From a virus, in IMG/VR virus record IMGVR_UViG_3300018432_000013, positions 48,927 to 112,926 of that record: DNA of 64,000 nucleotides; one strand, 5' to 3'. The notes beneath the pieces were generated by a model. That model saw nothing but the letters and a program-made list of their open reading frames with translations. It was not told where the DNA came from and did not search any database. Made by a program: the position numbers and the translations under genes. Of the stretch, positions 3,093 through 63,267 are shown piece after piece (position 1 is the first letter of the stretch; each line of letters opens with the position of its first letter).

Positions 3093-5062
3093 GGCTCGAC
3101 CTCACCCGCAGGCGCCCGCGCGCGCTCCGCTTCCGTCCGCGTGACGAGCTTTCGCGTCACGACACGCGCCATCTTGTTTCGAAGCGCGACGAGCACGCTC
3201 GCAATCTCGTCGAGGTCCTCCTCGTCGACCTCGACCTCGAACTGCTTGCGCGCAGGCGTCACGCGCTGCTTGGGCGGCTTGGGCGGCTTGTTGCCACCGA
3301 ACTGCCCGTTCGGCGTGCGTCCCTGGCCATCTGCGGGCGCCTGGTTGTCGCCCGTCTCAGTTGTCGACGACTCGGGCTCGGAGTTCGGCGCCTGGTTGTC
3401 CGGGTTGGTGTCTTCTGCTTCCGGCGTGGAGGCGCCGAGCCCGTCTGACTGGTTGACGCTCGCCAGGGTGAGCTTGAGCGGCATGTCAGCCCAGGGCGCG
3501 TCGATGCGCGGGAAGTTGCGGTTGAAGACCCCCTGCGAGAGCTCCATCAGGATGTTGGGCGGGATGAAGTCCTGCAGATCGTGAATCATCTTGGCGAGCG
3601 ACTCTGGATCGCGCTGCGTTGGGCCGTTCGACTTGAGCTTCCAACGCTTGACGTTGAGCGCCGGCAGGATGTCGCGGTTCATGCGGTAGTCGAACGTCTG
3701 GCGCTCCGGCTCGAACACCTGCCGCTCTGCGAAATCCAGGGCGGCCATCGCTGTACTGCGGTTGAAGTCGCGCGTGTCGCCACGCAGCATCCTGGGCAGT
3801 CGAAACGACATGCCCACCTTGTCGATATTACGCTCGTCGTAGTTCTGAAAGAGCCCGTCCGAGTTCTGCGCTTCCGTGAGCGGCTTGAGCTCGATCTTCA
3901 TGCGGCCCGAGTTCTCAAACGCCTGCGACTCACCACCCTCCGCCTCGATGACGAGAATCTTGTGGTAGTTCTGCTTGCCGCGGATGTTGTTGGTGATGAA
4001 GCTCTCGAGCCGCTCGGTCGAGTCCTTCGTCAACCTGCCTCCCGAGACGAGCACCGCGAGTGGCGGCACGCTCTTGTTCTCGAAGTAGCTGAAGTTGACC
4101 TCTTCGGACTGGCGCGAGCCGAAGACGCTGAGCAGGTTTCCGATCCAACGCGGCACGCCGTACGCCGTACGCGAAGAGGGCACCTTGAAGTGCATCATCT
4201 CGGTAGCCGCAGTGCTGTGCTTCTCGTCGAGCTGCATCGCGTCGACGTCCGCAAACGCCTTGCCCGAGCGCGAGCTCACAACGCGTGGATCTCCAAACTC
4301 CTTGAAGAAGACCGCTTGCCCGGCGACCTTCTGAATGTAGCGGCGAAACCGGCGCTTGCGTGTGACGTCCTCGAAGTCCTGGGTGGGCGTGCGCCGCTTG
4401 GTTTTGTACTCGGTCATCTCGACGTCGAGCTTCGTCAGGCGCACGGTGAAGGCTTCGACGTAGTTGAACTGGGAAATCCCGCCCACTCGATTGCGAACGA
4501 CCTCCCAGTACCCGTTGCCGGTAATCTCGACGTCCTCTCGCGTGCGGCGGCGCAAGTCGACGAAGCTCATCTCTGAGCAGTCGTCGAAGAACGCCGCCAG
4601 CTTCAGCGTCTCGGCGCGCTGCTCGTTGGCGAGCTGCTTGATACGCTGCTGCACCTCTTCGTCGGTCGGCTCTTCCACCTGCACGTTGTCGCTGTCGCCC
4701 TGGCGCTCCATGGCGATCAGTGCGCGCACGTCATCTTCGGTAGAGTCAGCCTCGAGATCGGTCACCGCAGTGAACGCATGGCCGAAGCCGTCGATGTTCG
4801 TCGCGTACGCGTCGACATTCTGGCGCAGCGCATTGCTGTGCTCGAACAGCAGCACGAGCACGCGTGGGTCGTAGGGCGGCTCAAGCGCCCCGCGCTCGCT
4901 GAAGAACTGCTCATCCTCTTCGATGTTCTGAATCGCGCGTGTCTCGAGCACGCCTTCGTCACGCAGCTTGATGATGCGTGCGCGCACCTCGCCGATGCGC
5001 GGGTCTCGCCCAAACCCATTTTCATCGACCGGCGCAGCCGTCGTTTCAGTCTCATCTGCCAC
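3089..5062 (-). CDS. Phage portal protein (PBSX family)
   Basis: LEPPYDP, TGNGYWEVVRN, EMMHFK...YGVPRW, NFSYFENKSVPP, FRLPRMLRG motifs; follows terminase. Confidence 0.92.
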   Translation of the reverse strand: MADETETTAAPVDENGFGRDPRIGEVRARIIKLRDEGVLETRAIQNIEEDEQFFSERGALEPPYDPRVLVLLFEHSNALRQNVDAYATNIDGFGHAFTAVTDLEADSTEDDVRALIAMERQGDSDNVQVEEPTDEEVQQRIKQLANEQRAETLKLAAFFDDCSEMSFVDLRRRTREDVEITGNGYWEVVRNRVGGISQFNYVEAFTVRLTKLDVEMTEYKTKRRTPTQDFEDVTRKRRFRRYIQKVAGQAVFFKEFGDPRVVSSRSGKAFADVDAMQLDEKHSTAATEMMHFKVPSSRTAYGVPRWIGNLLSVFGSRQSEEVNFSYFENKSVPPLAVLVSGGRLTKDSTERLESFITNNIRGKQNYHKILVIEAEGGESQAFENSGRMKIELKPLTEAQNSDGLFQNYDERNIDKVGMSFRLPRMLRGDTRDFNRSTAMAALDFAERQVFEPERQTFDYRMNRDILPALNVKRWKLKSNGPTQRDPESLAKMIHDLQDFIPPNILMELSQGVFNRNFPRIDAPWADMPLKLTLASVNQSDGLGASTPEAEDTNPDNQAPNSEPESSTTETGDNQAPADGQGRTPNGQFGGNKPPKPPKQRVTPARKQFEVEVDEEDLDEIASVLVALRNKMARVVTRKLVTRTEAERARAPAGEVEP

Positions 5063-5070
5063 AGCGAACC

Positions 5071-5358
5071 TCAGCTTTGCTGCACACCTGCAATCAGCAT
5101 GGTGGCGCTACCCGCGGCCACGCACTTCACACGAACCGAGAACGCATAGAAGTTGATGCCCAAAAAACCAGGCGCGGTAAACGTGCCGCCGTAGTCCTGG
5201 TAGTGGGCGCCGTCGGCGGAGATCTGCACCTGGTACTCCCCCGACGGAAGGTCGTAAATCTGCACGACCTTCTCTTTGAGGTGGTAGACAGTCAGCGGCG
5301 TACCGACGGCATCAAGCGTGGTCGGCACATCGAGTGCCAGCGAATACGGTCGCGACAT
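5071..5358 (-). CDS. Hypothetical protein
   Basis: 95-aa ORF in packaging operon. Confidence 0.6.
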   Translation of the reverse strand: MSRPYSLALDVPTTLDAVGTPLTVYHLKEKVVQIYDLPSGEYQVQISADGAHYQDYGGTFTAPGFLGINFYAFSVRVKCVAAGSATMLIAGVQQS

Positions 5359-5362
5359 GGGC

Positions 5363-5599
5363 TCACCCTTCTTTCACGTAGACGATGATCGCTTCGATTG
5401 CGCGGCCCGACCTGCTCGCGCGGAAGTTCACACTCTGCACCTGCCGCCCATCTCGCTCAGCGCGACCTCTGGCACGTGCAAGCGCATCGTCGTGGCTCTT
5501 CACGTCGGTCAGCACGAACCGAAGCAAGAGTGCGCGCTTGCCGTCCTTGCCCGGCTGGTCACCGAACACCTCGATGGGCAGCTTCTTTGGGAGCTCCAT
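5363..5599 (-). CDS. Hypothetical protein
   Basis: 78-aa ORF in packaging operon. Confidence 0.6.
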   Translation of the reverse strand: MELPKKLPIEVFGDQPGKDGKRALLLRFVLTDVKSHDDALARARGRAERDGRQVQSVNFRASRSGRAIEAIIVYVKEG

Positions 5600-6260: not shown

Positions 6261-7841
6261 TCACCCGAGCACACGAACTTCACCGCCCCGATGTTTCGCC
6301 GCGTACGCACGCGCAGCCTCACGCCCGATCCACTGCGCCATGAGGCAATCGCCGGTGTGCCCGTCTGGGGAGTAGTAGCGAGTCTCTTGCTCCCAAACTT
6401 GGACGTTCGGCTCGGTCACGAGCTGCGTCTCCCCGTTCACCACGCCAAGCTCACAAGGGATGAGCCAGCTTGCCGCCTCGAGCTCTCCAGCGAGCGATTC
6501 GACGCCGTACGCTCGCGAGTGCTTGTTCATGCCCGTGCGAAAGCCGCGCACAAGAATCTCCGGATAGTCTTCGGCGAGCCACTCAAGCAGGTACTGCTGC
6601 GCAGAGTTGTTCTCGACGAACATCCAGCTCCGATAGCGCGTCCAAACATCGACCACCTGCGCGATGATCTCCGGGCTCTTCCAGCGGCCGCGGCGAATGT
6701 TCAGAAGCTGCCGCGTCTGATCTGGCCAGAGCAGGAACGTGAAGAGCACGGTGTGATCGGCGGAGTCCTGCTTCGAGACGCCGAGGTCGATGCCCGTGAA
6801 CGTGCGAAAGCCGGGCGCGAAGCGAAACGACTTCGGCCGCAGGTCCCAACTGAGCCCCTTTCTGCGCCAGTACTCAGGGCCTATCCAATGCACGAAGTCG
6901 CGCAGGCTCTTGAACATCGGATAGCCGAGCCCGCGCTGTTTGCACTTGTCGATCCACGCCTGTTGAAACCGCGCATCCTCATCCGCATGCGCCTCGCACA
7001 TCATCATGCGTGCGAACTCGGTCGGGCCGTACTCCTCCGTGCGCACCTTGTTGATGCGCTCCTTGGGCCAGCGCTGCGGAGACGCGAGGTTGCCCGCCGC
7101 ATCCATCACCGGGTACTTCTTGGCAAGCCACCCTTGCCGCGCGAGCTCGTGCGCGAAGTCGTCCGGATGAAACGCGTTGGCGAGCACGATGACTTGCGAC
7201 CGCTTCGAGAGGCGTGAGAACACCGAGGCGCGGATCCACGTCCCCGTCTTGTTGCGCTGGTACGCCGTGCGCGTGTTCTCTTCGACCAGCACGTCGTCGA
7301 TGATGACCACGTCGAGACGCGCGCCCTGCACTGCGCCGTTCGGCGAGACCGCCTGCACCGACGGATCCTTGATGATGCCGGGACGCGCGATGGTGATCGC
7401 GTGGTCGGTCCACATCACACCCCGGCGCAAGTCCGGAAAGATGTGATGCAGGGTCGCGTTCGTCTCGATGTGCCGGCGCAACGAGGCGATGATCTTCTTC
7501 ACCTGCTTCTCAGCCGCCGCGAGGATGGCGATACGCAGGCGAGGATTACGGCCGAGCAGCCAGAGCACCCGGCCGACCGAGAACTGCTGGCTCTTGCCCG
7601 ACTCGGGGAACGCCCAGATGACCATGTTGCGGCCCGTGTCCGCCGTCCCATGCCACTCGTAGTGCATGGGCAGCATCTCGATCGGGTCGCCGGTCTCCTC
7701 GTCCTTGAGCGTGAGCTCGCAGAACAGCGCGCAGTCCTCGCGCGCAAGCTCCAGCAGGCTCGCGTACGCCGCCTGCGCCTGCTTTACCTCAGCGGCCCGA
7801 TCGTAGGTCGGATCGCCGCTCTGCATGCTCCTGGCCCCCAC
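6261..7841 (-). CDS. terL: Terminase large subunit
   Basis: Walker A-like PESGKS, GARLDVVIIDD Walker B, C-terminal nuclease GIDLG...DHT...GDCLMA; upstream of portal. Confidence 0.9.
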   Translation of the reverse strand: MGARSMQSGDPTYDRAAEVKQAQAAYASLLELAREDCALFCELTLKDEETGDPIEMLPMHYEWHGTADTGRNMVIWAFPESGKSQQFSVGRVLWLLGRNPRLRIAILAAAEKQVKKIIASLRRHIETNATLHHIFPDLRRGVMWTDHAITIARPGIIKDPSVQAVSPNGAVQGARLDVVIIDDVLVEENTRTAYQRNKTGTWIRASVFSRLSKRSQVIVLANAFHPDDFAHELARQGWLAKKYPVMDAAGNLASPQRWPKERINKVRTEEYGPTEFARMMMCEAHADEDARFQQAWIDKCKQRGLGYPMFKSLRDFVHWIGPEYWRRKGLSWDLRPKSFRFAPGFRTFTGIDLGVSKQDSADHTVLFTFLLWPDQTRQLLNIRRGRWKSPEIIAQVVDVWTRYRSWMFVENNSAQQYLLEWLAEDYPEILVRGFRTGMNKHSRAYGVESLAGELEAASWLIPCELGVVNGETQLVTEPNVQVWEQETRYYSPDGHTGDCLMAQWIGREAARAYAAKHRGGEVRVLG

Positions 7842-9257: not shown

Positions 9258-9578
9258 TCACAAACCTTGACGTACGTGGGCCAAAAGCTCGTTCGAGCGC
9301 ACGATCCCGAGCTGCGCCGCGACCGCGACGAACTCCCGCGCGGTGAGGCGCGGACGCGCGCGCAGCGGCGGGTTTTGGGATGCGAAACCCGACGAAACGG
9401 GAGCTGCAACAGCCTTCGACGCCTTTCGAACGGCTGATGCCGCCTCAGAACGAACGACGTACACGTAATTCTGTGACAACAAAACCCCGCGCGCTAAAGC
9501 ACGGTCAACGATCTCCCGCGCGGAGAGTTTCTTCGGGCAGCTGAGAATGAACTGCCTCTTCGAGAGGGTACTTTTCAT
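9258..9578 (-). CDS. Hypothetical basic, probable DNA-binding protein
   Basis: LSAREIVDRA...LSQNYVYVVRS HTH-like segment. Confidence 0.5.
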   Translation of the reverse strand: MKSTLSKRQFILSCPKKLSAREIVDRALARGVLLSQNYVYVVRSEAASAVRKASKAVAAPVSSGFASQNPPLRARPRLTAREFVAVAAQLGIVRSNELLAHVRQGL

Positions 9579-52880: not shown

Positions 52881-53234
52881 TCATAGGGGCTCTTCTCGAC
52901 GTAGCAGCTTGAGCATCTCCTCGTACGTCGGCATGGTCTCGAGGATGGTTGCGATGGTGTTGAGCGCGTACTCGCCTTCTTGGGTGTCGTCTTCGATCAC
53001 ATCTTGGATGAGCTTGAGCGTTCGCATGAAGCGCTCGCGATCGACGCGGGCGCTTTCGAGTTGTCGCGCAAACTGCTCGCACCGCCACACGCAGGCCGTG
53101 TGCTGATCTCGCTGGTCTTGCTCGTCGTGTAGCGCTTGGTCAAGCTGCTCTTCCAGCTCCGCTACCCGCGCCTCGACTGTGCCTTCATGAGCCTGCTCAA
53201 CAGGCACGAGGACCGCTCCGTGGGGTCCCCGCAC
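52881..53234 (-). CDS. Hypothetical coiled-coil protein
   Basis: 117-aa ORF. Confidence 0.5.
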   Translation of the reverse strand: MRGPHGAVLVPVEQAHEGTVEARVAELEEQLDQALHDEQDQRDQHTACVWRCEQFARQLESARVDRERFMRTLKLIQDVIEDDTQEGEYALNTIATILETMPTYEEMLKLLRREEPL

Positions 53235-53775
53235 GCCCGCTCACCTTTTCCTTGATCCAAGGGCCAGGCGGGTCGCCGGTACCGTCCCACGCCTGCAGCG
53301 CGCGGAGTGCCTCGCGCTCGTTGGGGTAGCAGTAGCGCGCCGTGTAGTCGTTTTCCATCTCATAGAACTTCAGGTCAGTCAGCAAACCGCAGGTGAAGAT
53401 GAATCGCTGAATACCGCAAAGGCCACGGCCAGGCACCCTTCGAACGACACGGAACTCTGAACGCCAGTGCTCGGGGACTTCGTCAGCTGTCGACTCTTCA
53501 GGAGTGCGACTCAGCTGCGCGAAAAGCACGCACAGCGCATCGACAGCGAGAATCTCCTGATAGACACGGTACCCCGGGCGCGACTCGACAGGCACCCAGC
53601 AGTTCGCACGCGCAAGCTTCAAAACGCGATGCCAGCACACAGGGATGGGTGCGCGTTTTTCCGCCATCCAGCTGCGCATGTCCATGCGGAGTGCCCAGCT
53701 CATCTGATGATCGAGCAGTTCTTCGTAGGTCGCGTCGGGGCGCGGCGGCTCGTATTCGAGGACGTGTGGCTCCAT
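53197..53775 (-). CDS. Hypothetical protein
   Basis: 192-aa ORF; RYCY...WDG.GDPPGPWIK motif. Confidence 0.6.
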   Translation of the reverse strand: MEPHVLEYEPPRPDATYEELLDHQMSWALRMDMRSWMAEKRAPIPVCWHRVLKLARANCWVPVESRPGYRVYQEILAVDALCVLFAQLSRTPEESTADEVPEHWRSEFRVVRRVPGRGLCGIQRFIFTCGLLTDLKFYEMENDYTARYCYPNEREALRALQAWDGTGDPPGPWIKEKVSGRAGTPRSGPRAC

Positions 53776-53799
53776 GAGTCCGACGATAAGACTTGCCGT

Positions 53800-54225
53800 C
53801 TATGATCGCAGCCAGTTTTCTACGTGCAAGTTCGGCACGCGCCCAAAGTCTTTCACGTTGTCTGTGACCACTACACACTCGAGAGCGATGGCGTGGCCGG
53901 CAATCCAGAGGTCATTGACGCCGATCAAGTTGCCCGTCTTCTCAAGATACGCGCGCAGTTGGCCGTACCTGAAACTGGCACGGCCGTCGAGACCGTGGAC
54001 CACAAGCCGCGAGAACACGCGATCGAAGTGATGCGTAAGTTGCCCAGCCCGCTCAGGGTTGGTTTCGCGCTTCTTATCGATGCCGAAGTGCAGCTCTCCT
54101 CGGACAATCTCGCTTGTGCAGAGCTGGTCTTCCGGTACCTCAAGCACGCGCCGCGCACACACGCCTCTGGGGTCAAGCATCAGCGCCGAGATGATGTTCG
54201 TGTCGAGCATGTAGCGCGGCATCAA
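53800..54225 (-). CDS. vapC: PIN-domain toxin
   Basis: YMLDTNIIS...ELHFG...IGVNDLWIAGHA...VTDNVKDFGRVPNL.VENW. Confidence 0.93.
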   Translation of the reverse strand: MMPRYMLDTNIISALMLDPRGVCARRVLEVPEDQLCTSEIVRGELHFGIDKKRETNPERAGQLTHHFDRVFSRLVVHGLDGRASFRYGQLRAYLEKTGNLIGVNDLWIAGHAIALECVVVTDNVKDFGRVPNLHVENWLRS

Positions 54226-54467
54226 AAGAAGTCCTCGGGCGCAGTCAGCGGGTCCTCGCCCACATCGAGCGTGTCATCGATGGGCTCAAGCGAAGCGAGC
54301 ACTTGCGCGAGCGTCTCCTGGACGATGGGCTCGATAATCAAGCGCGTGCCCTCCCGACGTACCGAGACCTCTTCCAAGTCGAACTCGAACTCGCGAGGGA
54401 TGCGCAGCGCCTGGTTGCCGCCGTTCCTGAACAAGCGCACTTGCTTGGTATTGCTGGAGCTTTCCAT
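54222..54467 (-). CDS. vapB: AbrB/SpoVT-fold antitoxin
   Basis: VRLFRNGGNQALRIPREFEF. Confidence 0.92.
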   Translation of the reverse strand: MESSSNTKQVRLFRNGGNQALRIPREFEFDLEEVSVRREGTRLIIEPIVQETLAQVLASLEPIDDTLDVGEDPLTAPEDFF

Positions 54468-54837
54468 CAGACAACGAGCATATGCTCAAGCATCGGATAT
54501 GTCCAGACATAGCTCTTCAAACTACCTGAGCCAAGCCCTCGCGACTGAAAGCTCGACACGCGGCAGCTCGCGCACTAACGCTCGTTGATGGCCCTCAGCG
54601 GAGAACATCGACCGTACGTCGCGGCACAGCTCGCGCTCCGAGAGATTACAGAAACGCCGGGCTCTGTCTTACGCCGTCTGGCATCTGACATCCTACGTAT
54701 CCCCAACACAGCCGAGCCGGGCTCCGCTGTACCAGCGGAGCAGTTACGGCTGCGTGTCCTCGTGCATGAACTGCTCGGCTCGATCGCGGACGACAACGAT
54801 CGCATCGAGAGAGCGGTACGGTGATAGGCACGTCGTC

Positions 54838-55218
54838 TTATGCGAGTCGCAGGGGGATTCCGGCGTCGTGCATGTGCTGGTAATCAGTATCTGCAGCGAC
54901 CAAATCGCACCCGTGGGTAAGCGCGTAGGAAGCAATCAGCAAGTCGATTGTCTTGGCGGTGACGCCTTTGGTGCGCAGATGCTGGCCGAGGTTCCCGGCA
55001 TAGGTCCATAGCGCGTGCGGCTGCCGCAGGTGGTGACATTGGGCAAAGAGGCCCATGACGTGTTGCCGCTCGGACTCACGCAAGCCGCGGCTAATCTCCG
55101 TGAGCACCGGCCCACAGAGCGCTGCCTCGCCGTCGCGAAGCGCCAACTCGACGCTGTCAGCCACTTCGCCAGGCCCGCGGAAGAATGCGATCCAAGCAGA
55201 TGTATCGACGAGCTTCAC
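54838..55218 (-). CDS. vapC: PIN-domain toxin
   Basis: LVDTSAWIAFFRG...VLTE...TIDLLIA...D.DY. Confidence 0.9.
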   Translation of the reverse strand: MKLVDTSAWIAFFRGPGEVADSVELALRDGEAALCGPVLTEISRGLRESERQHVMGLFAQCHHLRQPHALWTYAGNLGQHLRTKGVTAKTIDLLIASYALTHGCDLVAADTDYQHMHDAGIPLRLA

Positions 55219-55418
55219 GAGCGTGTGTATTCGAGGTCGAGGTCAAAGTCGATCTTGCCGCGCAGACTCGCAAGCTCGCGTAGCTTCTCACGCCGATCAA
55301 ACTCTTCGAGCGAGGCTACCAGCGTCTCCGTGATGCCTTTGCCGGTGGCCTGTTGCACACGCTCAAGCAATGCGGCAGGCAGGTTGACGGTGACCTTCTT
55401 GATGTCGGCTTGGTCCAT
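55215..55418 (-). CDS. vapB: RHH antitoxin
   Basis: KVTVNLP..LL...TGKGITET...LRGKIDFDLDL; overlaps vapC. Confidence 0.85.
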   Translation of the reverse strand: MDQADIKKVTVNLPAALLERVQQATGKGITETLVASLEEFDRREKLRELASLRGKIDFDLDLEYTRS

Positions 55419-55544
55419 GGCCGAGTATGGCAAAAACCATGGTTCGCGCCAGCTCCTTTCATGTATCAGGGAGGGCAGTGACGAGTTCGCAGAAGGAAGG
55501 TTATGTAAACTAAGGTGGGATAGGGTGCGACTGACCAGTGCGTG

Positions 55545-55628
55545 GTCCCAGCTTCAAAGGTGCTGAGCTGCCTCTGTTTCAATGACCTGCTACGAGTCTC
55601 AGCTTCGAAGGTGCTGAGCTACCTTTGC
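55545..55628 (-). CRISPR. Detached CRISPR mini-array (2 degenerate repeats, about 23-nt spacer)
   Basis: gtcccagcttcaaaggtgctgagctgcc and gtctcagcttcgaaggtgctgagctacc match the main array repeat. Confidence 0.75.
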
Positions 55629-55876
55629 CGATCAGGGTCTTCGACGTGAACGTGCAGCCAGACTTTCCCGTCCGCGTCCGGTACGAGCTTGTTGAGATCA
55701 GTGCCGCCTTGTAGCGGTGGCAGTTTGGGCATCAGCTCCCGGCACGCTTTACAGATGACCATGAGCGGCGGGATGTACGTGAAGCCGCCGCTCGGGTACT
55801 CCGTATAGGAGCCCGGCCTTGCTTTCACGCCTGTGGGCTTGCCGCATTTCATGCATGCGATCGTCTCATCGCTCAT
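55619..55876 (-). CDS. Small Zn-finger protein; stop codon lies inside the mini-array repeat
   Basis: CMKC...CKAC. Confidence 0.6.
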   Translation of the reverse strand: MSDETIACMKCGKPTGVKARPGSYTEYPSGGFTYIPPLMVICKACRELMPKLPPLQGGTDLNKLVPDADGKVWLHVHVEDPDRQR

Positions 55877-55910
55877 GACCCCCCCCCCTATGCCGCTCCG
55901 CAGGTGATCG

Positions 55911-56288
55911 TTACTCGATACGCACGGGCACACCCTTGCTGTCGATGACCCGGCCCTCGGCCAGCTCGACGAGCGTGCGTTTCACGCTGTCCCGTAGTTG
56001 GTCCTGTGCGGCGTCTACGATGGGCTTGGGTGCATTCTTCAAGCCGTACATCTTGGCAGCGATTGAATCGGCGAGCGTGTCCACCAAGCCCGGTGTGTTG
56101 AGCACGAGCGCTGCAATCGCGGCGGGATCGGTGGCCGTCTGCAGGAGTTCACGTCGGTACTCGGCGATGGTCTCAGCGGCTGAGAGACGATCAGGCGTTC
56201 CCTTGATCGCACCGATGGTTGCCCATTCGATCACTTCGTCAGCGACTTCCCAATCGCGCGTAGCGATTCGTTCCTGGTGGACGCTCAT
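55911..56288 (-). CDS. Hypothetical protein
   Basis: MSVHQER..., GAGG RBS. Confidence 0.6.
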   Translation of the reverse strand: MSVHQERIATRDWEVADEVIEWATIGAIKGTPDRLSAAETIAEYRRELLQTATDPAAIAALVLNTPGLVDTLADSIAAKMYGLKNAPKPIVDAAQDQLRDSVKRTLVELAEGRVIDSKGVPVRIE

Positions 56289-56421
56289 GGCTTGCCTCGT
56301 CCGAGCAGTTTGAGTAGCCGGTCGTAGCAAGCGCGGCACATCCAAAACGCGCCGTCCGCACCATGCACGCACATCACGGAAGGTTGGCCGCAGCCGCATG
56401 GACTCTGCTTTGGAGGCTCTT

Positions 56422-56634
56422 TCATGGTTCACCCGGGATCCAAATCCCCTCACTCGCGAGTTCAGCGGATGCGAGTCGTGTTGCCTCGCGCAGCGAGAGC
56501 CCGCCATCAATGTGCGCGATGGCGATGCGTTCGAGGTAGCGATAGGGCACCACGCCATCGGACAGGCGGATGTGCTCATCGCTGGGGTTTACGCCGTGCA
56601 CCGGGACGCGCTCAGTTTTTTCGAGTGCTGTCAT
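56422..56634 (-). CDS. Hypothetical protein
   Basis: ERIAI..IDGGLS..EA motif. Confidence 0.55.
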   Translation of the reverse strand: MTALEKTERVPVHGVNPSDEHIRLSDGVVPYRYLERIAIAHIDGGLSLREATRLASAELASEGIWIPGEP

Positions 56635-56705
56635 CGCTACCGATCTTGCTTATACCAGCCGCAGTGGCCATGGCAGCAAGTCCGGCCGTCGTCCCGCGCG
56701 GCAAA

Positions 56706-56954
56706 TCACTCGCCGAGCTTCGCATCAGGCTGGTTGAACCAGTCCGCTGGCACCTCTGAACGCAGTTGCGATTCAAGCGCGCGCATCGCTGTCGCGGTAT
56801 TGCGCGCGAGTGCCGCACTCTTCGGCGAGTGCTCAGCGCTGAACTCGGCCATCTCGTCGAGCGACGGATAGAGCTTCGCGAGCTCATCGGCCACCTGGAG
56901 CTTGGCCTGGTGGACTTTACCCTCAGACGTTTCGAAAATCCGCGCGTCGACCAT
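56706..56954 (-). CDS. Hypothetical protein
   Basis: GGAG RBS; coupled to the upstream ORF. Confidence 0.55.
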   Translation of the reverse strand: MVDARIFETSEGKVHQAKLQVADELAKLYPSLDEMAEFSAEHSPKSAALARNTATAMRALESQLRSEVPADWFNQPDAKLGE

Positions 56955-56956
56955 GA

Positions 56957-57157
56957 TCACTCTCCACTTGGGTAGCTGTACCAATCGTCACCATCGTCCT
57001 CATCTGAGAGCGCGCACGCTTGTCCTGCAGGTGTGTGGGTCTGCATGTGCTTGCGCTTTTCGGCGAGGCAATCGCCGCAGATGACGTGCCGTGCTTTCGA
57101 GCTCGGAAGCCGGAGGACCCGGCCACACCCCATGCACCGTGCAACATCCACGCGCAT
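56957..57157 (-). CDS. Small Zn-finger protein
   Basis: CMGC...CGDC; GGAGG RBS about 50 nt after the last array repeat. Confidence 0.55.
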   Translation of the reverse strand: MRVDVARCMGCGRVLRLPSSKARHVICGDCLAEKRKHMQTHTPAGQACALSDEDDGDDWYSYPSGE

Positions 57158-57213
57158 CCCGCCCTCCGCGTCCAATGTGAGCCCATCCAGGCTACACCGC
57201 GTGAGTGCCTGTT

Positions 57214-59589
57214 GTCTCAGCTTCTTGAGCGCTGAAGCAGCCATTGCTTTGCACCTGTACACGATGTCTCAGCTTCTCAGGCACTGAGCGGCCGTTGCCG
57301 CTGCGACAGGCGACAAGTCTCAGCTTCTTGGGGCGCTGAGCAGTCGATAGCGTTACACCAAACTCGGTACCGTCTCAGCTTGAAAAGCGCTGAGCAGCCT
57401 TGGGTGGAAAACATGGTGAAGTTGTCCCAATGGTCTCAGTTTTGAAGGCACTGAGCTACCGCACGAAACATGCTGCGAGAAGTTGTCACGGTGGTCTCAG
57501 CTTCAAGGGCGCTGAGCAGCCGTTGCTTTACGCAGGGCCTGAGTCACCTGTTGTCTCAGCTTCCCAAAGGCGCTGAGCAGCCGTTGCCGTTTGCAGTTTT
57601 CGATCACTTCCCTGTCGCTTTTCTCATCCACGGCTCAGCTTTAGAGGCGCTGAGCAGCCGTTGCCGATCTAAGCTGCGCAATTTACAGGCAGTCTCAGCT
57701 TTGAAGGCGCTGAGCAACACCTATCGCGACTTGACAGCCCCTCATCTTCTGAATCTCAGCTTTAAAGGCACTGAGCAGCCATTGCAGCAGGAGATCGCCG
57801 CGTTGTCTCAGCTTCAAAGGCGCTGAGCGGCCCAGACGCTTTGATTCCGTGCGGTGGAGTCACTCACATCTCAGCTTGGAGGGCGCTGAGCAGCCGCTGC
57901 CAAAGGGGTTCGTTGTTGCGGTCTCAGGCTTCAAGGGCGCTGAGCAGCCGCTGATTCGTAAAGAAAGCCCCCGGCTCTCTCAGCTTCGAAGGCGCTGAGC
58001 AGCCCATTGTCGAGCTTCGCCACTTGTTGTCTCAGCCTCGCAGGGCGCTGAGCGGCCATTACCGTATGCCGTCACATGGAAGCGTCTCAGCTTCAAGGGC
58101 GCTGAGCAGCCGCTGCCAGAGGTGGGTTCGTTGGTTCGGTCTCAGCATTGAAAAAGCGCTGAGCAGCCATCGCCACTGGCAACTATCTAGTCTCAGCTTC
58201 AAAAGGCGCTGAGCAGCCATTGTGAGTTCGATGGCTGCAAGTCTCAGCTTCAAGGGCGCTGAGCAGCCTTTGCGAACTTCTTCATGGACGCGTTTCAGCT
58301 TCAAAGGCGCTGAACAACCATTTGCGTCTGGTCGTCTCAGCTTCCAGGGCGCTGAGCAGCCGTTGTTGCACGTGCAGCACGGTGCGCATATGAGTTCCGA
58401 CGTCTCAGCTTCGCGGGCGCTGAGCAGCCATTGTTGCAACCTGGGACGAACAGTGGTCTCGGCTTCAAAGGCGCTGAGCAGCCATCGCAACTACGCGCGA
58501 CGGTGCCGTACGTCTCAGTTTCAAAAGGCACTGAGCAGCCAGCAGTCCCCAGTCTCAGCTTCAAGGGCGCTGAGCAACCGTTGCTGCCATCGGTCTACCT
58601 TGGGCCATCTCGTGCGCCAGGTTGTCTCAGCTTCAAGGGCGCTGAACAGCCATCGCAACTACGCGCGACGGCTGCGGTGGCCGCGATTCGACGCATGTCT
58701 CAGCTTCAAAGGCGCTGAGCAGCCGCCACTCGGTTCGCCATCTCAGCTTCAAGGGCGCTGAGCAGCCGTCGCTACCCTCAGGGAAGGGGGCTCATGTTCT
58801 GAAGATCTCAGCTTCAATGGGGCGCTGAGCAGCCGTTGTTCTTTACCCGTGGCACTTCTTGTCTCAGCTTCAAAGGCGCTGAGCAGCAGATCAACTCACC
58901 TTCAATCTGTCTCAGCTTCAATGGGCGCTGAGCAGCCGTTGCTACAGCCAAGGCACCAGGCGAGCATCTCTGAACGCTCGGTCTCAGCTTCAAGGGCGCT
59001 GAGCAGCCATTGCTGCCGTGACCGCACCAGCCTGATGACTGCGTCTCAGCTTCAAGGACGCTGAGCAACCGTTGCTACCTGGACAACTTAAGCTCGACGA
59101 CGACGCTAGAGGTCTCAGCTTCTAGGGCGCTGAGCAACCGTTGCTACGCTCTGAGAACACGGCCAACCTCGTCGCGGAACTGACCGTCTCAGCTTCTAGG
59201 GCGCTGAGCAGCCGTTGCTACGATATGCGGCGAAACTGCGTGACCGTGTTCTACCAGTCTCAGCTTCAAGGGCGCTGAGCAACCATTATTTGCTGCTCAT
59301 GCACAAGCCGCCCGGGGAACCATATGGATGTCTGTCTCAGCTTCAAGGGGCGCTGAGCAACCGTTGCAGCGCATCCTTCCTGCGGAACCTCGCAGCGTCC
59401 ACTTCGAGGTCTCAGCTTCAAGGGCGCTGAGCAGCCACTGCAGCAACGTGGCGCTAGTCGGCCGCGGCGTCATGTTCGAGGTCTCAGCTTCAAGGGCGCT
59501 GAGCAGCCATTGCAGCCACCGCATCCATCGCTCGCCGAGACTTGGCCGCTGTCGTCTCAGCTTCAAGGGCGCTGAGCAACCATTGCAGC
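57214..59589 (-). CRISPR. CRISPR array, about 40 repeats; 36-nt repeat GCTGCAAYGGYTGCTCAGCGCCCTTGAAGCTGAGAC; leader at 59590-59666
   Basis: Counted 40 copies of gtctcagc-N9/10-gctgagc with largely unique spacers. Period is about 72 nt near the cas gene and 40-65 nt for most distal units. Confidence 0.95.
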
Positions 59590-59666
59590 AGCTCCGCCAC
59601 AAGGCGAATCATCATATGAAGTTGTCAACAGTGCTGCGAGCGGCCCCGAGATCCGCGCGCTTCACC

Positions 59667-61484
59667 TTACTCCGCAACGTCCGTAGCAGCAGGCTGCGCA
59701 TGGCGCTTCCGAAACCGCTCCGCGCGCTTGCTGGGCTTGCGAGCGGGTGCGGGGTTTGTCGCGTCACCGGAGTGATCACGTGTGAACCGACGCAGCAGAT
59801 TGATGGCTGCGTTATGATCCTGATCCCACAGCTCACCGCAGTACTCGCAACGATGCCAGAGCTCTTCGCCCTGCTCCCACGAGCAAACGCCTCCGCACGC
59901 ATGGCAATGGCTCGTGGTGCCGCTCGCATCGACGCTGATGACGAGCCCGCCTTCGCGTTGCACTGCCTGCGTGAGGCACTGCCGAAACTCGCCGGGTGCG
60001 CTCGCATGCAGCTGCGCGCGCTGCGCGAGCGGCGCATCCTCGCCTTGCTCCGGGGCCTTCAAGCGCTTGGCCGTCGCCAGATCGAACTGCTCAATCACCA
60101 CACGCCCATAGGCGCGCGCGATCTGCGCAGCGGTGCAGCGGTAGAGCTCGCGCCGCGCAAGCAGTGCCTTACGCTGCGCATCGACCTCCCACTGATACAG
60201 GTGCCGCGAACGATGCAGCCAGCGCTCCATGGCCGCGAAGATGCGCTCGTCTCCTACGAAGCGCGTACGCCGCCAGTCGAGCACGAGACGCCGTAGCCGC
60301 CCGTGTGAGCGCCACTGCCCGAGGTGCGGGCGCTCCCGTGCAAGCCACTCCGGGGCCTTTCCCGCATCGAGCCAGCGAGCGAGCCAGCGGACGGCGCGGT
60401 TGAAGTGCAGATCTTGAATCTCCCTCAAGTCTCGTGCCTTGCGCAGACGCATCCGCACTGACTCCGGCATCACCACCTCACGGTGATTTCCTTGGTCGTC
60501 AGCGCAGTAGGCCACGCGCAAGCTCCCGTCAGGGCGCTGTCGCCAGCCGAGATCGAGTGCCACGATTCCCGGGCGCTCAGGCATCACTGCCGGCTCGCGC
60601 GCGTACGTGACGCTGACCGTCCACTGCTCACGAAAACCGAGGACACGAAGGCGCACCACCGCGCCTTTGATGCGCGCATCGTCAGGGATCGGGCGGTGAA
60701 GGATCAAAGGGAACACCGCCCAGACAGGCGAACGCCCTGCACTCTCCACGCGCATCCACAAGCGCGTGCGTGAACAGCGACGACGCACCCCTCGCGACGA
60801 CGCATGCCACGCATCAGGCGATACGGGCTCGATGCGCAGCCGCGTGTCCTCGCAGCCGTAGAGCTCGGCGACAGTCATGCCGCCTTGGACCTGCACACCG
60901 ATGCGCCCTTCTGCACTGCCTTCGCCGGCCGCAGAGATGCGCTCACGACCGCGCGCACGGCGAAACGACGGATCGATGGTCGCCTTACGGGCCTGCTCGG
61001 CCGAGGCTTCTTCAAGCAGGTACGTTCCCCACCACGGCGCGCGCATCGCACGCAGCGCCTTGCTCCAAATCTTCGCGCGCTCGTCGAGCTGTTCGACGGC
61101 TGCACGCAGCTCAGCATTATCGCGCGCTGCCTGGCGGGCGTCTTTCAATGCGACGCGTGCGACTCGCAAGGCACTCTGCACGTCCTTGGCACGCTGATCG
61201 AGGTCCGCCGTATCGACGCGGCGACGCGCTTCCTTGCGTACGCCCTTGATGGCTTCGCGCAGGCTCATCAGCTCCGCAGCAAGCTCCTCGACCCGCGCCT
61301 CGACTGACTCGAGATCCACGTACTTTCGCCGCAGGTCGCGATAGACCGCGCGTCGGCAACGCTCCAGCGCGATGAGCTCATTGTAATACCGGGCGCCAAG
61401 GCGCATCTGCTGACGCACGACATCTGCGTTTTCGATCGGCGCAAGGCAACCGTACTGCGCAACGCGTGCTTCGAGTGTGGTCAT
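59667..61484 (-). CDS. cas12m: Compact type V CRISPR effector, Cas12m (V-M / V-U1)-like, TnpB-derived RuvC protein
   Basis: 605 aa; long N-terminal coiled coil, IGVQVQ, LHRPIP.DA.I, RuvC-I VALDLGWR, QWRS, RuvC-II VVIE, APG, Zn finger CHAC/CEYC, RuvC-III WDQDHNAA; abuts the array. Confidence 0.82.
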   Translation of the reverse strand: MTTLEARVAQYGCLAPIENADVVRQQMRLGARYYNELIALERCRRAVYRDLRRKYVDLESVEARVEELAAELMSLREAIKGVRKEARRRVDTADLDQRAKDVQSALRVARVALKDARQAARDNAELRAAVEQLDERAKIWSKALRAMRAPWWGTYLLEEASAEQARKATIDPSFRRARGRERISAAGEGSAEGRIGVQVQGGMTVAELYGCEDTRLRIEPVSPDAWHASSRGVRRRCSRTRLWMRVESAGRSPVWAVFPLILHRPIPDDARIKGAVVRLRVLGFREQWTVSVTYAREPAVMPERPGIVALDLGWRQRPDGSLRVAYCADDQGNHREVVMPESVRMRLRKARDLREIQDLHFNRAVRWLARWLDAGKAPEWLARERPHLGQWRSHGRLRRLVLDWRRTRFVGDERIFAAMERWLHRSRHLYQWEVDAQRKALLARRELYRCTAAQIARAYGRVVIEQFDLATAKRLKAPEQGEDAPLAQRAQLHASAPGEFRQCLTQAVQREGGLVISVDASGTTSHCHACGGVCSWEQGEELWHRCEYCGELWDQDHNAAINLLRRFTRDHSGDATNPAPARKPSKRAERFRKRHAQPAATDVAE

Positions 61485-61491
61485 GGGTCCC

Positions 61492-61995
61492 CTACCCTTT
61501 CGGCCCCGTGCCGAGCATCAACGCCGGCATCTCACCGCTGTCGTACGCCAGCTGCAACTTCGGTTTGACTGCTTCTGCCATGGTCGAGCCGTCAGGCAAA
61601 AGGATGTCGCCCAAAAACGTGGCCTCGAAGTCGGCGTCGCCCGAAGCGACCGCCTCGAGCCGCGCCTTCAGGATGAGAACAGCAGCGCGCCAGCGACGCC
61701 GCCACTCCTTCTCCTGCAGCGGTTTGATCTGCGCCGCTGTTCGCTTCCGCCAAGGCGCCTTCGGATCGAAAAGCACGTACGGCTCTGCCTCAGGAAAGCG
61801 GACGAACTGCTTCAACATGCGCCCGCGCATGCGATACATGACCGTCCAGCCGGCGTCGGCCATGTGAAGCCCGATCTCCGCGGCGCCGTGCTTTCTCAGC
61901 AGGTCCTCAAGCTCAGCACGCGAGCGCTCAACGGGCACATCGGTGCCCTCTGCGAACCGACGCGTCCTGGGAGGCGCTTCCACCCTCCCCTTCAT
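61492..61995 (-). CDS. Conserved phage hypothetical protein
   Basis: T.VPVERSRAELEDLLRKHGA...RWR...LKARLEAV.SG...FL..ILLPDG.T. Confidence 0.75.
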   Translation of the reverse strand: MKGRVEAPPRTRRFAEGTDVPVERSRAELEDLLRKHGAAEIGLHMADAGWTVMYRMRGRMLKQFVRFPEAEPYVLFDPKAPWRKRTAAQIKPLQEKEWRRRWRAAVLILKARLEAVASGDADFEATFLGDILLPDGSTMAEAVKPKLQLAYDSGEMPALMLGTGPKG

Positions 61996-62582
61996 GACCG
62001 CGCCTCCTTGATGCGCTTCACCTGATCGGGATGCGGAATGCCGCTCTTAGCGAGCCACTCCGTCACCGCCTTCTCGACGACGTGGCTGAGCGTGACCCGC
62101 TCAAGCGCTGCGGCGAGGTCGAGCCAGTCGAGCAGGCCGGTCTCGAAGTGGATGGTGGTCACGCGCGTTTGCCTCGTGCCGCCCCGCAGCGTGCGCGGGT
62201 TGCGCTTGGTGCCGGGCTTGGTCTCCGGCAGTGATATCACGGTTTCACGACGTTTCGACGCCTTGGGCTTTGGCTTCTTCGCTGGCTTGGCTGCTTGAGA
62301 CTCGACCACCGTGGTTACTTGTTGGTCTGCAGGTTTGACCGCTTGGCGCTCCGGAGGCGTAGAGGCTTGCGACTCCACCGCAACAACAGCCTGCTCGCTT
62401 GCCGGCGCGTCCGGAGACTGCTCTTCCGGAGCAATCGTATCTTTCCCAGCAGCGCCCTTCCCTGCCGCGGCAACGCGTGCGCGAAACGCCGCGCGCGTCT
62501 CGGCAGTTGGCGTGATGCGGCGCATCGATTGCACCGCGAGTCCAGCAGCGAGCTGCGCTGCCTCCTCATCCCTGCGTGACAT
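61992..62582 (-). CDS. ParA partner (ParG-like centromere-binding protein, C-terminal RHH)
   Basis: Disordered N-terminus; TTIHFETGLLDWLDLAAALERVTLSHVVEKAVTEWL; overlaps the parA end. Confidence 0.7.
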   Translation of the reverse strand: MSRRDEEAAQLAAGLAVQSMRRITPTAETRAAFRARVAAAGKGAAGKDTIAPEEQSPDAPASEQAVVAVESQASTPPERQAVKPADQQVTTVVESQAAKPAKKPKPKASKRRETVISLPETKPGTKRNPRTLRGGTRQTRVTTIHFETGLLDWLDLAAALERVTLSHVVEKAVTEWLAKSGIPHPDQVKRIKEARS

Positions 62583-63267
62583 GCTCACTCCCCTCAACCT
62601 CTCTCTGGCGACGCGCACGCATCCCGGGCAACAGCTCTTCAAGCTCGTCGACGAGCGCTCGGAACTCCTGCGCCGCAGGTGACTTGGGCTTGTGCGACGT
62701 GATCCCGCGGCCCAGCACGGTGGCCGTGTTGTAGTCGTTGCTGTGCTTGAGCTCCGTTCGAAGCTTCGGCATCGAGTGCTTTCCGAGCGCGATGCGCGCG
62801 GCCTCGCTGATCTTGGTGCTGGTCTTTCCGGTGATCGCGATGAAGGCCTGAAGCTCTGGCCGTAGCTCCCGTTGCGCATCAGCGACCACCGCAAGCGTGT
62901 CGGCGAGGCCCCAGATATCCTCCGGCTTCGTCGGGTTGACCGGAATGAGCGCCAGGTCGGCGAGCTCAAGCGCGGTCGCCAGCCGGTCGTTGAGCGCGCC
63001 CTGGGTGTCGACGATGAGCACATCGCACTGCGCTGCGTAGTGCCGGATCCGCTCCTCCATGTTGTTGTCGTCGACCCCGTACACGGGAGGCACGAGGGTG
63101 TGAAAGGCGGCTGCGAGCCCCGCCCAATGCGTCGCTGTCCCCTGTGGATCCGCGTCGATCACAATCACGCGCTGGCCACGCAGCGCCCACTCGACCGAGC
63201 AGTGACGCGCGAAGAAGGTCTTCCCGGAGCCACCCTTTTGCACACAAGCCACCACGATGTCGCCCAT
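62566..63267 (-). CDS. parA: ParA-family partition ATPase (short plasmid type Ib)
   Basis: QKGGSGKT, IDADPQG, IVDT, ADLALIP, SPAAQE. Confidence 0.9.
   Translation of the reverse strand: MGDIVVACVQKGGSGKTFFARHCSVEWALRGQRVIVIDADPQGTATHWAGLAAAFHTLVPPVYGVDDNNMEERIRHYAAQCDVLIVDTQGALNDRLATALELADLALIPVNPTKPEDIWGLADTLAVVADAQRELRPELQAFIAITGKTSTKISEAARIALGKHSMPKLRTELKHSNDYNTATVLGRGITSHKPKSPAAQEFRALVDELEELLPGMRARRQREVEGSEHVTQG

Follow-up and report, generated by a model that had tools for sequence, protein, structure and literature searches.

The 64,000-nucleotide (nt) window analysed here comprises bases 48927-112926 of a 112,926-bp IMG/VR virus record (IMGVR_UViG_3300018432_000013) that has direct terminal repeats and is rated 100% complete. 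Coordinates are window positions unless they are marked "genome" or preceded by a locus label (L and a number). Our subject is a CRISPR array of type V-M, the six small genes and two stray repeats that follow it, and the two vapBC toxin-antitoxin pairs beyond them. The effector gene cas12m, the array, the six open reading frames (ORFs), both stray repeats and both vapBC pairs all lie on the minus strand (Table 1). The element as a whole looks like a phage-plasmid, because the record encodes a ParA-type ATPase (62566-63267) and, outside the window, an HTH_36 rep-like protein.

Table 1. Features of the cas12m-array-vapBC region and the lone repeat on the rep side of the record.
Feature	Position	Strand	Basis or remark
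cas12m effector, 605 aa	59667-61484	minus	phmmer E=7.2e-83 to PDB chain 23vw_A 'Cas12m'; 5e-30 to Cas12m2
Main array, ~40 repeats	57214-59589	minus, co-oriented with cas12m	looser scan and covariance model from aligned repeats
Repeat 40, last main repeat	57214-57250	minus	covariance model 40.6 bits; 'guide' is the 5' leader of ORF1
ORF1, 66 aa, zinc-ribbon-like CxxC..CxxC	56957-57157	minus	GGAGG 7 nt before ATG
ORF2, 82 aa, orphan	56706-56954	minus	start overlaps ORF1 stop
ORF3, 70 aa, orphan	56422-56634	minus	no family match
ORF4, 46 aa, Cys-rich, zinc-finger-like	56285-56425	minus	4-nt overlap with ORF3 and with ORF5
ORF5, 125 aa, helical orphan	55911-56288	minus	no relatives beyond itself
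ORF6, 85 aa, zinc-ribbon-like CxxC..CxxC	55619-55876	minus	ends in stray repeat 41
Stray repeat 41	55596-55631	minus	covariance model 45.5 bits, E about 3e-9
Mini-array spacer, 15 nt, guide TCGTAGCAGGTCATT	55581-55595	minus	between repeats 41 and 42
Stray repeat 42	55545-55580	minus	covariance model 41.5 bits; sequence upstream of vapB1 is its 'guide'
vapB1-like antitoxin, 67 aa from ATG	55215-55418	minus	position before VapC1; ribbon-helix-helix (RHH)-like N-terminus
vapC1 PIN toxin, 126 aa	54838-55218	minus	Pfam PIN 1.8e-11; NCBIfam TA_toxin_VapC 79 bits (cut-off 80)
Small ORF between vapBC pairs, 78 aa	54588-54824	plus	GCGCACTAAC 8 nt before ATG; no family found
vapB2 antitoxin, AbrB/MazE fold	54222-54467	minus	Pfam MazE_antitoxin 1e-4; NCBIfam VapB 9e-12
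vapC2 PIN toxin, 141 aa	53800-54225	minus	Pfam PIN 8.2e-13
Third lone repeat in phage (rep side)	genome 4150-4186, 44.7 kb before window start	plus	covariance model 46.9 bits

The effector is homologous to characterised Cas12m proteins and carries a Cas12f1-like TNB zinc ribbon domain (Pfam). It is accompanied by co-oriented repeats of about 36 nt with a 3' hairpin, and the stray repeats belong to the same family, which places the system in type V-M. Cas12m orthologues process their own precursor CRISPR RNA (pre-crRNA) and are DNA binders that silence transcription (PMC11013384, PMC10442227). In one of them, PmCas12m, one cut is made within each repeat, after 2-3 nt, and another at position 17-18 of the guide, and single mismatches within the first 12 nt are not tolerated (bioRxiv 10.64898/2026.03.26.714355). 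By analogy with these orthologues, the present protein is predicted to process its own pre-crRNA and to bind DNA without cleaving it.

The repeat core occurs in 24 copies at three mismatches or fewer, where shuffled sequences gave an expectation of 0. On the minus strand, the 3' end of the 36-nt consensus reads GCTGAGAC / GCUGAGAC. The end GCUGAGAC is the same as in the regular array of Virus Rctr197k, the nearest annotated phage relative (Cas12m 37% identical), and this shared end fixes the direction of the CRISPR RNAs (crRNAs). The main repeats score 35-58 bits under the covariance model. Across 45 repeats, 98.5% of cells are paired in a structure made of a six-pair stem and a three-pair pseudoknot that joins 5' GGC to loop GCC, far above slid controls. 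The spacers range from 3 to 41 nt. Those nearest cas12m measure 33-41 nt with one exception of 26 nt, and the distal ones are mostly 12-25 nt long, with a few of 3-7 nt. A distal spacer of 13-19 nt, joined to the 2-3 nt left by the cut in the next repeat, is predicted to yield a guide of mature length without separate 3' trimming. Spacer duplication was considered as the cause of the irregularity and set aside, as just one pair (14/17) rose above the null. No array spacer matched the phage and plasmid collections, self-targeting matches for any spacer stayed at chance level over the whole genome, and no Rfam family was found in 53000-61600.

Repeat 40 is separated from repeat 41 by 1,582 nt, and this interval is filled by the six co-oriented ORFs, with 4-nt overlaps at three junctions (ORF1/2, ORF3/4 and ORF4/5). 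Paired, zinc-ribbon-like CxxC motifs are present in three of the six. Apart from a weak match of ORF1 to DUF6011 (E=0.0088), searches of Pfam, PHROG and NCBIfam returned no family for ORF1-6, and no paralogues occur elsewhere in the phage. ORF5 recovered only itself among 5.8 billion clusters and no relatives in the Atlas, ORF6 had no tblastn match among phage genomes, and a blastn search of phages and plasmids with 55400-59620 returned no E value below 0.3. Five of the ORFs show the phage-typical pattern of high GC1 and GC3 with low GC2 (weakest in ORF1 and ORF4; GC1 is low in ORF6), and this pattern is less clear in the overlapping alternative frames. Between 59600 and 53000 the minus strand has no terminator-like site, which makes read-through from the array into the cassette plausible. 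The TAG stop of ORF6 (55621-55619) forms nt 11-13 of repeat 41, and the last three ORF6 codons likewise lie inside the repeat. A copy of the motif RGGCACYAAC after repeat 40 (57201-57210, one mismatch) was rejected as a signal, since it lacks the spacing of 5-9 nt to a start codon seen in exact copies; copies with one mismatch are common by chance.

Both stray repeats score inside the range of the main repeats, and they differ from the main consensus at five (repeat 41) and four (repeat 42) positions of the 28-nt core. Repeat 41 keeps all six stem and all three pseudoknot pairs, the third pseudoknot pair being U-A in place of C-G (GGU/ACC for GGC/GCC), while repeat 42 has one U-G wobble in its stem and one broken pseudoknot pair. 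The spacer of 15 nt between them has the compact format of main units 21-23 and 38-39 in the distal array, and short units also end the arrays of Rctr197k and of the metagenome contig Ga0193723_1000293; in the latter the last spacer is 15 nt between two repeats. Because PmCas12m cuts 2-3 nt into the next repeat (bioRxiv 10.64898/2026.03.26.714355), such a spacer would give a mature guide of 17-18 nt. Repeat 40 ends 56 nt before the ATG of ORF1, and repeat 42 ends 126 nt before that of vapB1. An earlier note on this stretch had described genes sandwiched between the array and two further repeats (55545, 55596), and the scans and the covariance model bear out that arrangement. It was also right that the last ORF stops inside a repeat, and its vapBC pairs about 130 bp further on agree with a vapB1 start 111-126 nt after repeat 42 and with matches to PIN and VapB models. 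Its five co-oriented small ORFs are indeed co-oriented but number six, and zinc-finger-type proteins do occur among them, although three rather than two carry paired CxxC motifs.

Arrays divided in this way recur among relatives. An alignment of 22 Cas12m homologues (48-65% identity) was used to retrieve 48 viral and 25 genomic loci, and roughly a quarter of the viral loci with a detectable array have repeats away from it. In L034 (11717-16098), an array is split into 3 and 16 repeats by 3.1 kb, within which an opposite-strand IS1-family transposase accompanies a proteasome-like ORF and three other ORFs. In L028, a co-oriented ORF of 225 aa lies between stray repeats. Homologues of ORF1-6 were absent from the 54 loci with Cas12m relatives.

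The reading we favour, to which we assign a probability of about one half, is that the window holds a split type V-M array enclosing native-looking cargo, probably co-transcribed with it, such that processing by Cas12m would bound the cassette mRNA. The 1.58-kb block of six genes would sit inside the degenerate, compact distal part of the Cas12m array, so that repeats 41 and 42 and the 15-nt spacer would be left stranded downstream as the old array terminus. Minus-strand transcription from the cas12m and array side would run through the cassette. Cas12m would bind the scaffold of each repeat and, if it cuts as PmCas12m does, a few nt into the repeat and about 17-18 nt into the guide, the products would be crRNA 40, a cassette mRNA with its 5' end about 40 nt before ORF1, crRNA 41 and crRNA 42. 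In repeat 41, such a cut would precede the ORF6 stop codon by 8-10 nt, and processed transcripts would then lack that stop. The stray guides would then be ordinary guides against something external, or relics, and the vapBC pairs would be ordinary cargo, for addiction or defence, in the accessory region of a phage-plasmid, with an incidental adjacency to the mini-array. The Cas12m identity of the effector, the uniform orientation, the lack of a terminator-like site, the kept scaffolds, the compact 15-nt spacer, the splits in L034 and L028, the short-unit array ends of Rctr197k and Ga0193723_1000293, the native composition, the lack of self-targets and the absence of vapBC and ORF1-6 homologues from the 54 related loci are all compatible with a split array.

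Several observations weigh against this reading. No transposase, integrase or flanking duplication marks the cassette borders, and the composition of the cassette is native rather than foreign, so that the case for an insertion is a topological one. Scans of viral, metagenome and genome collections yielded no relative close enough to show the array uninterrupted. Repeats 41 and 42 are nearer to the repeat variant of contig Ga0193723_1000293 (GGCAGC..CCTTTGAA, 2-3 differences in the 28-nt core) than to the main consensus (4-5 differences). The same contig shows that a single 36-nt repeat can be inserted into a gene as a discrete unit, which makes seeding, in place of stranding, a possible origin of the stray repeats too. 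Finally, the insertion of cargo does not explain the lone repeat on the rep side, which is separated from the array by about 100 kb of the record. That repeat is intergenic, with the HTH_36 rep-like gene (minus strand, start about 4059-4070) on one side and a VWA gene (plus strand, 4413-5150) on the other. It directly follows a promoter-like site and two hairpins, and the rest of the genome holds no match to its guide TGGTGTGTGCGCCCAAAC.

Contig Ga0193723_1000293 (19 kb; loci L013 and L014) was the only other holder of this repeat found when viral, metagenome and genome collections were scanned with single proteins and with the repeat pattern, and no other genome in a 185,579-species collection carries the repeat core. 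It has a regular array of 10 repeats (L013:9333-9988) whose core is almost the same as that of the window. No cas12m is recognisable on the 19-kb contig; the array may be an orphan served by a Cas12m from another source, or else the gene may be located beyond the contig ends. No mutual targeting between the phage and the contig was found at 16 nt or more beyond the repeats. Three lone repeats lie on the contig, one intergenic before two small Cys-rich ORFs (to which ORF1-6 show no similarity) and two in frame inside ORFs (L014:5075-5110 and L013:1829-1864), each adding 12 residues (RSGSSAPLKL..). For the L014 ORF of 190 aa (4801-5373), precisely the 12 repeat-encoded residues are missing from two homologues (P0003 and P0004, 39-40% identity), and one complete 36-nt repeat was therefore inserted there as a unit. 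It stands between ..TTTC and the downstream sequence, the position of a junction between a T-rich protospacer-adjacent motif (PAM) and a protospacer. The repeat-bearing ORF of L013 has no homologues, and its insertion boundaries cannot be set; a PDB profile search with the repeat-bearing ORF family returned nothing. After the intergenic lone repeat in L014 (4248-4283) come 32 nt that recur exactly at L013:712-743 as a hairpin GTGAGACAAACGTCTCAC with a C/A-rich tail; they are probably a repeated regulatory element of the contig rather than a spacer.

These cases raise the possibility that repeats spread as discrete 36-nt units, perhaps in an RNA-templated or transposition-like manner, and that the stray and rep-side repeats of the phage were seeded in place. 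The insertion of exactly one repeat at a PAM-protospacer junction in L014 argues for this, as do lone repeats far from arrays in the phage, in L025 and L036 (each about 5 kb upstream of cas12m) and in L066. The last of these is the closest genomic relative, a Pseudomonadota metagenome-assembled genome (contig JBEGTL010000213.1; Cas12m 55% identical) that points to a possible Pseudomonadota host for the phage. Its lone repeat (7786-7821) lies 1 kb upstream of cas12m, is preceded by three iteron-like GGGGCGTGAAG copies and has a compensatory stem change (CTCAAC/GTTGAG); no array is present in the 1.8 kb of contig following cas12m. Yet the exact bases are set for just one such insertion, clear T-rich 5' flanks are missing from the other lone repeats, the phage contains no Y1 (TnpA-type) transposase, and no mechanism is known. 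We consider seeding in place unlikely.

A second alternative, to which we would give somewhat more credence while still thinking it rather improbable, is that ectopic repeats are cis-acting RNA elements through which Cas12m binding or processing controls neighbouring mRNAs. Repeats 40-42 would then define and modulate the transcripts of ORF1-6 and vapBC1, and the removal of the ORF6 stop or the creation of a 5' end for the vapBC1 mRNA could tie these genes to Cas12m. A lone repeat lies 12-29 nt before the cas12m start codon in L043 (about 370-397), L044 (about 9539-9565) and L056 (9382-9416), and in L043 and L044 its 17-18-nt 'guide' part covers the Shine-Dalgarno sequence and ATG of cas12m. 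The guides of such lone repeats had no DNA targets within their own loci, and the arrangement looks like autoregulation at the RNA level. The in-frame lone repeats in two ORFs of Ga0193723_1000293, the lone repeat in a leader region beside the rep-like gene of the phage, the ORF6 stop inside a repeat 41 whose scaffold is kept by a compensatory change, and the processing of pre-crRNA by the orthologues themselves (PMC11013384, PMC10442227) also agree with control in cis. The repeats of the window, however, overlap no ribosome-binding site, vapBC2 has a promoter of its own, and the link between Cas12m and vapBC is not conserved.

It is also conceivable that the stray repeats are decaying relics without function and that the ORFs are phage genes beside a dying array end. 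The core differences and the broken pseudoknot pair of repeat 42 would fit such decay, as would the absence of guide targets in the genome and of spacer matches in the phage and plasmid collections. On the other hand, repeat 41 keeps its nine pairs through a double change, both repeats score like many main repeats, and ectopic repeats are recurrent and well conserved in relatives. We find simple decay quite unlikely.

The two pairs downstream of the mini-array have the organisation of type II VapBC modules, with a PIN toxin directly after a small DNA-binding antitoxin and 4-nt gene overlaps. VapB1 matched no family model and is called by its position and RHH-like sequence; its start is ATG 55418 or TTG 55433, 111-126 nt past repeat 42. 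VapC2 resembles the VapC tRNA(fMet)-endonuclease type of NCBIfam (5e-28, under the equivalog cut-off), and a promoter scan placed a sigma70-like promoter for vapBC2 at 54505-54477. Judged by sequence, VapC1 and VapC2 are ordinary protein VapC toxins with cognate VapB antitoxins. No vapBC homologues occur in the 54 loci with Cas12m relatives, and three plasmid-borne relatives have unrelated genes after their arrays. The GCGCACTAAC before the small ORF between the two pairs has a spacing to its start that fits many exact RGGCACYAAC copies in the genome (5-9 nt to the start codon). At the other end of the locus, the gene directly upstream of cas12m (61492-61995, minus strand) matches phrog_17260 (2.7e-33; function unknown). 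Rctr197k also has a 504-bp 'conserved hypothetical' gene directly upstream of its own cas12m; tblastn at 1e-3 detected no similarity between the two.

This neighbourhood had led the earlier note to propose that the mini-array encodes crRNA-like RNAs coupling Cas12m to vapBC, following the logic of the CRISPR-regulated toxin-antitoxin system CreTA. In such a scheme, the RNA would guide Cas12m to partly complementary vap, par or cas promoters and loss of Cas12m would unleash VapC. The resemblance to creA is real as far as it goes: the degenerate ectopic repeats 41 and 42 flank a spacer-like sequence of 15 nt beside a toxin module and a cas gene (PMC8501985, PMC9458426), and Cas12m silences transcription by binding DNA (PMC10442227, PMC11013384). 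The hallmark of CreA and of CRISPR-like RNAs (crlRNAs), however, is complementarity of the spacer to a promoter next to a PAM (PMC8501985, PMC9458426, bioRxiv 10.1101/2024.12.27.630466). The 18 nt that come first in each guide after repeats 40, 41 and 42 and after the rep-side lone repeat were searched against all 112,926 bp of the genome. The PAM of this Cas12m was inferred from its orthologues, for which YTN, TTN, TTV and YTTS are reported. Across the whole genome, the best non-self matches of the four guides reached 13-14 of 18 positions with at most 7 contiguous PAM-proximal bases and had no T-rich PAM; the best for stray guides 41 and 42 was 14/18. With a YTN PAM and a seed of at least 7 nt, guide 41 had 0 matches and guide 42 had 5; all of these lie outside the promoter regions of vap, par and cas, and no match was better than those of shuffled guides. 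The loci of the stray guides themselves have no PAM, and the RNA structure of the mini-array and vapB leader is unremarkable (z = +0.6).

Thus the comparison of mini-array guides with the vap, par and cas promoters, which the earlier note had called for, gave only chance-level matches, and neither a PAM-adjacent seed nor a partial match beyond chance was found in those promoters or elsewhere in the genome. PmCas12m is reported to tolerate no mismatch in the first 12 nt, the neighbouring toxins are VapC PIN proteins paired with VapB rather than a small RNA lacking a protein antitoxin, and the link to vapBC is not kept in relatives. We regard CreTA-like control as very improbable, and the proposal is not upheld. 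The other explanation in that note, cargo of 1.6 kb inside the array with an mRNA bounded by the effector, is compatible with everything seen and is the one preferred here, with the insertion itself read from topology.

Beyond the split array, a broader idea, speculative and in our judgement unlikely, is that the 36-nt repeat of type V-M systems on phages and plasmids serves as a portable RNA handle and not only as part of an array, the cassette of the window being one instance. Single repeats do appear placed in leaders, in ORFs and beside replication genes, and sometimes at the junction of a PAM and a protospacer. If this were so, Cas12m could bind or cut the mRNAs that carry the handle, so that cas12m would regulate itself and cargo such as ORF1-6 and the vapBC leader would come under Cas12m control. 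The native sequence flanking an inserted repeat would become a guide against alleles that lack the insertion, and the element's own copy would lose its PAM. Cas12m is a natural 'dead' CRISPR effector under development as a compact epigenome editor, and its biology on phages and plasmids is barely described. The operon enclosed by the array, the rep-side repeat and the leader and in-gene repeats of relatives suggest uses of the repeat beyond the defence array, possibly in post-transcriptional control, self-regulation or competition between related elements. Regulation by ectopic repeats, as in CreTA, CreR, crlRNA and Racr, would then extend to type V-M and to action at the RNA level, and a route for change would exist in arrays without Cas1-Cas2. 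Even if the split is a mere accident of insertion, it would still be a natural example of an mRNA and crRNAs encoded on one transcript.

Several known systems share parts of this anatomy. The CreTA, crlRNA and CreR elements of type I systems likewise combine diverged ectopic repeats and a short spacer beside a cas gene and a toxin module with a silencing, DNA-binding effector. They differ in the pairing of PAM and promoter complementarity and in the nature of the toxin, which here is a VapC protein with its VapB and not a small RNA, and the present system is of type V-M, on a phage, with a link that relatives do not share. Solitary repeat units of viruses, their mini-arrays and RNA anti-CRISPRs (Racr; PMC10651486) are also few or lone repeats on a mobile element, outside any regular array, that keep the hairpin bound by the effector. 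Here, both the matching Cas12m and an array of 40 units are encoded by the phage itself, so that inhibition of a host system by mimicry is not the obvious role; contig Ga0193723_1000293, with the repeats and no recognisable cas12m, is a likelier candidate for a Racr-like role. Arrays split by insertion sequences or cargo show the same succession of array, inserted DNA and remaining repeats, as in L034 with its IS1-family transposase, but the intervening DNA of the window has no mobility gene and is co-oriented and packed like an operon.

CRISPR-associated transposons of types V-K and I-F3 use delocalised crRNAs, in which a guide unit with a diverged repeat stands apart from the main array. TnpB processes its own mRNA into omega RNA, so that an RNA-guided protein binds or cuts the mRNA that carries its scaffold. 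The phage differs from both in having no transposon machinery, no identified homing target and no Y1 transposase. There is also a likeness to the canonical type V-M loci of plasmids and phages (Mm, Ms, Go and PmCas12m; Rctr197k), with an effector of about 600 aa, no cas1 or cas2, a co-oriented array directly downstream and a 36-nt repeat that ends in ..CUGAGAC and forms a stem and pseudoknot. Except at its end, the array of Rctr197k repeats regularly every 71-76 nt, whereas the phage array has irregular spacers of 3-41 nt, an interruption by 1.58 kb of genes and a lone counterpart at the rep region.

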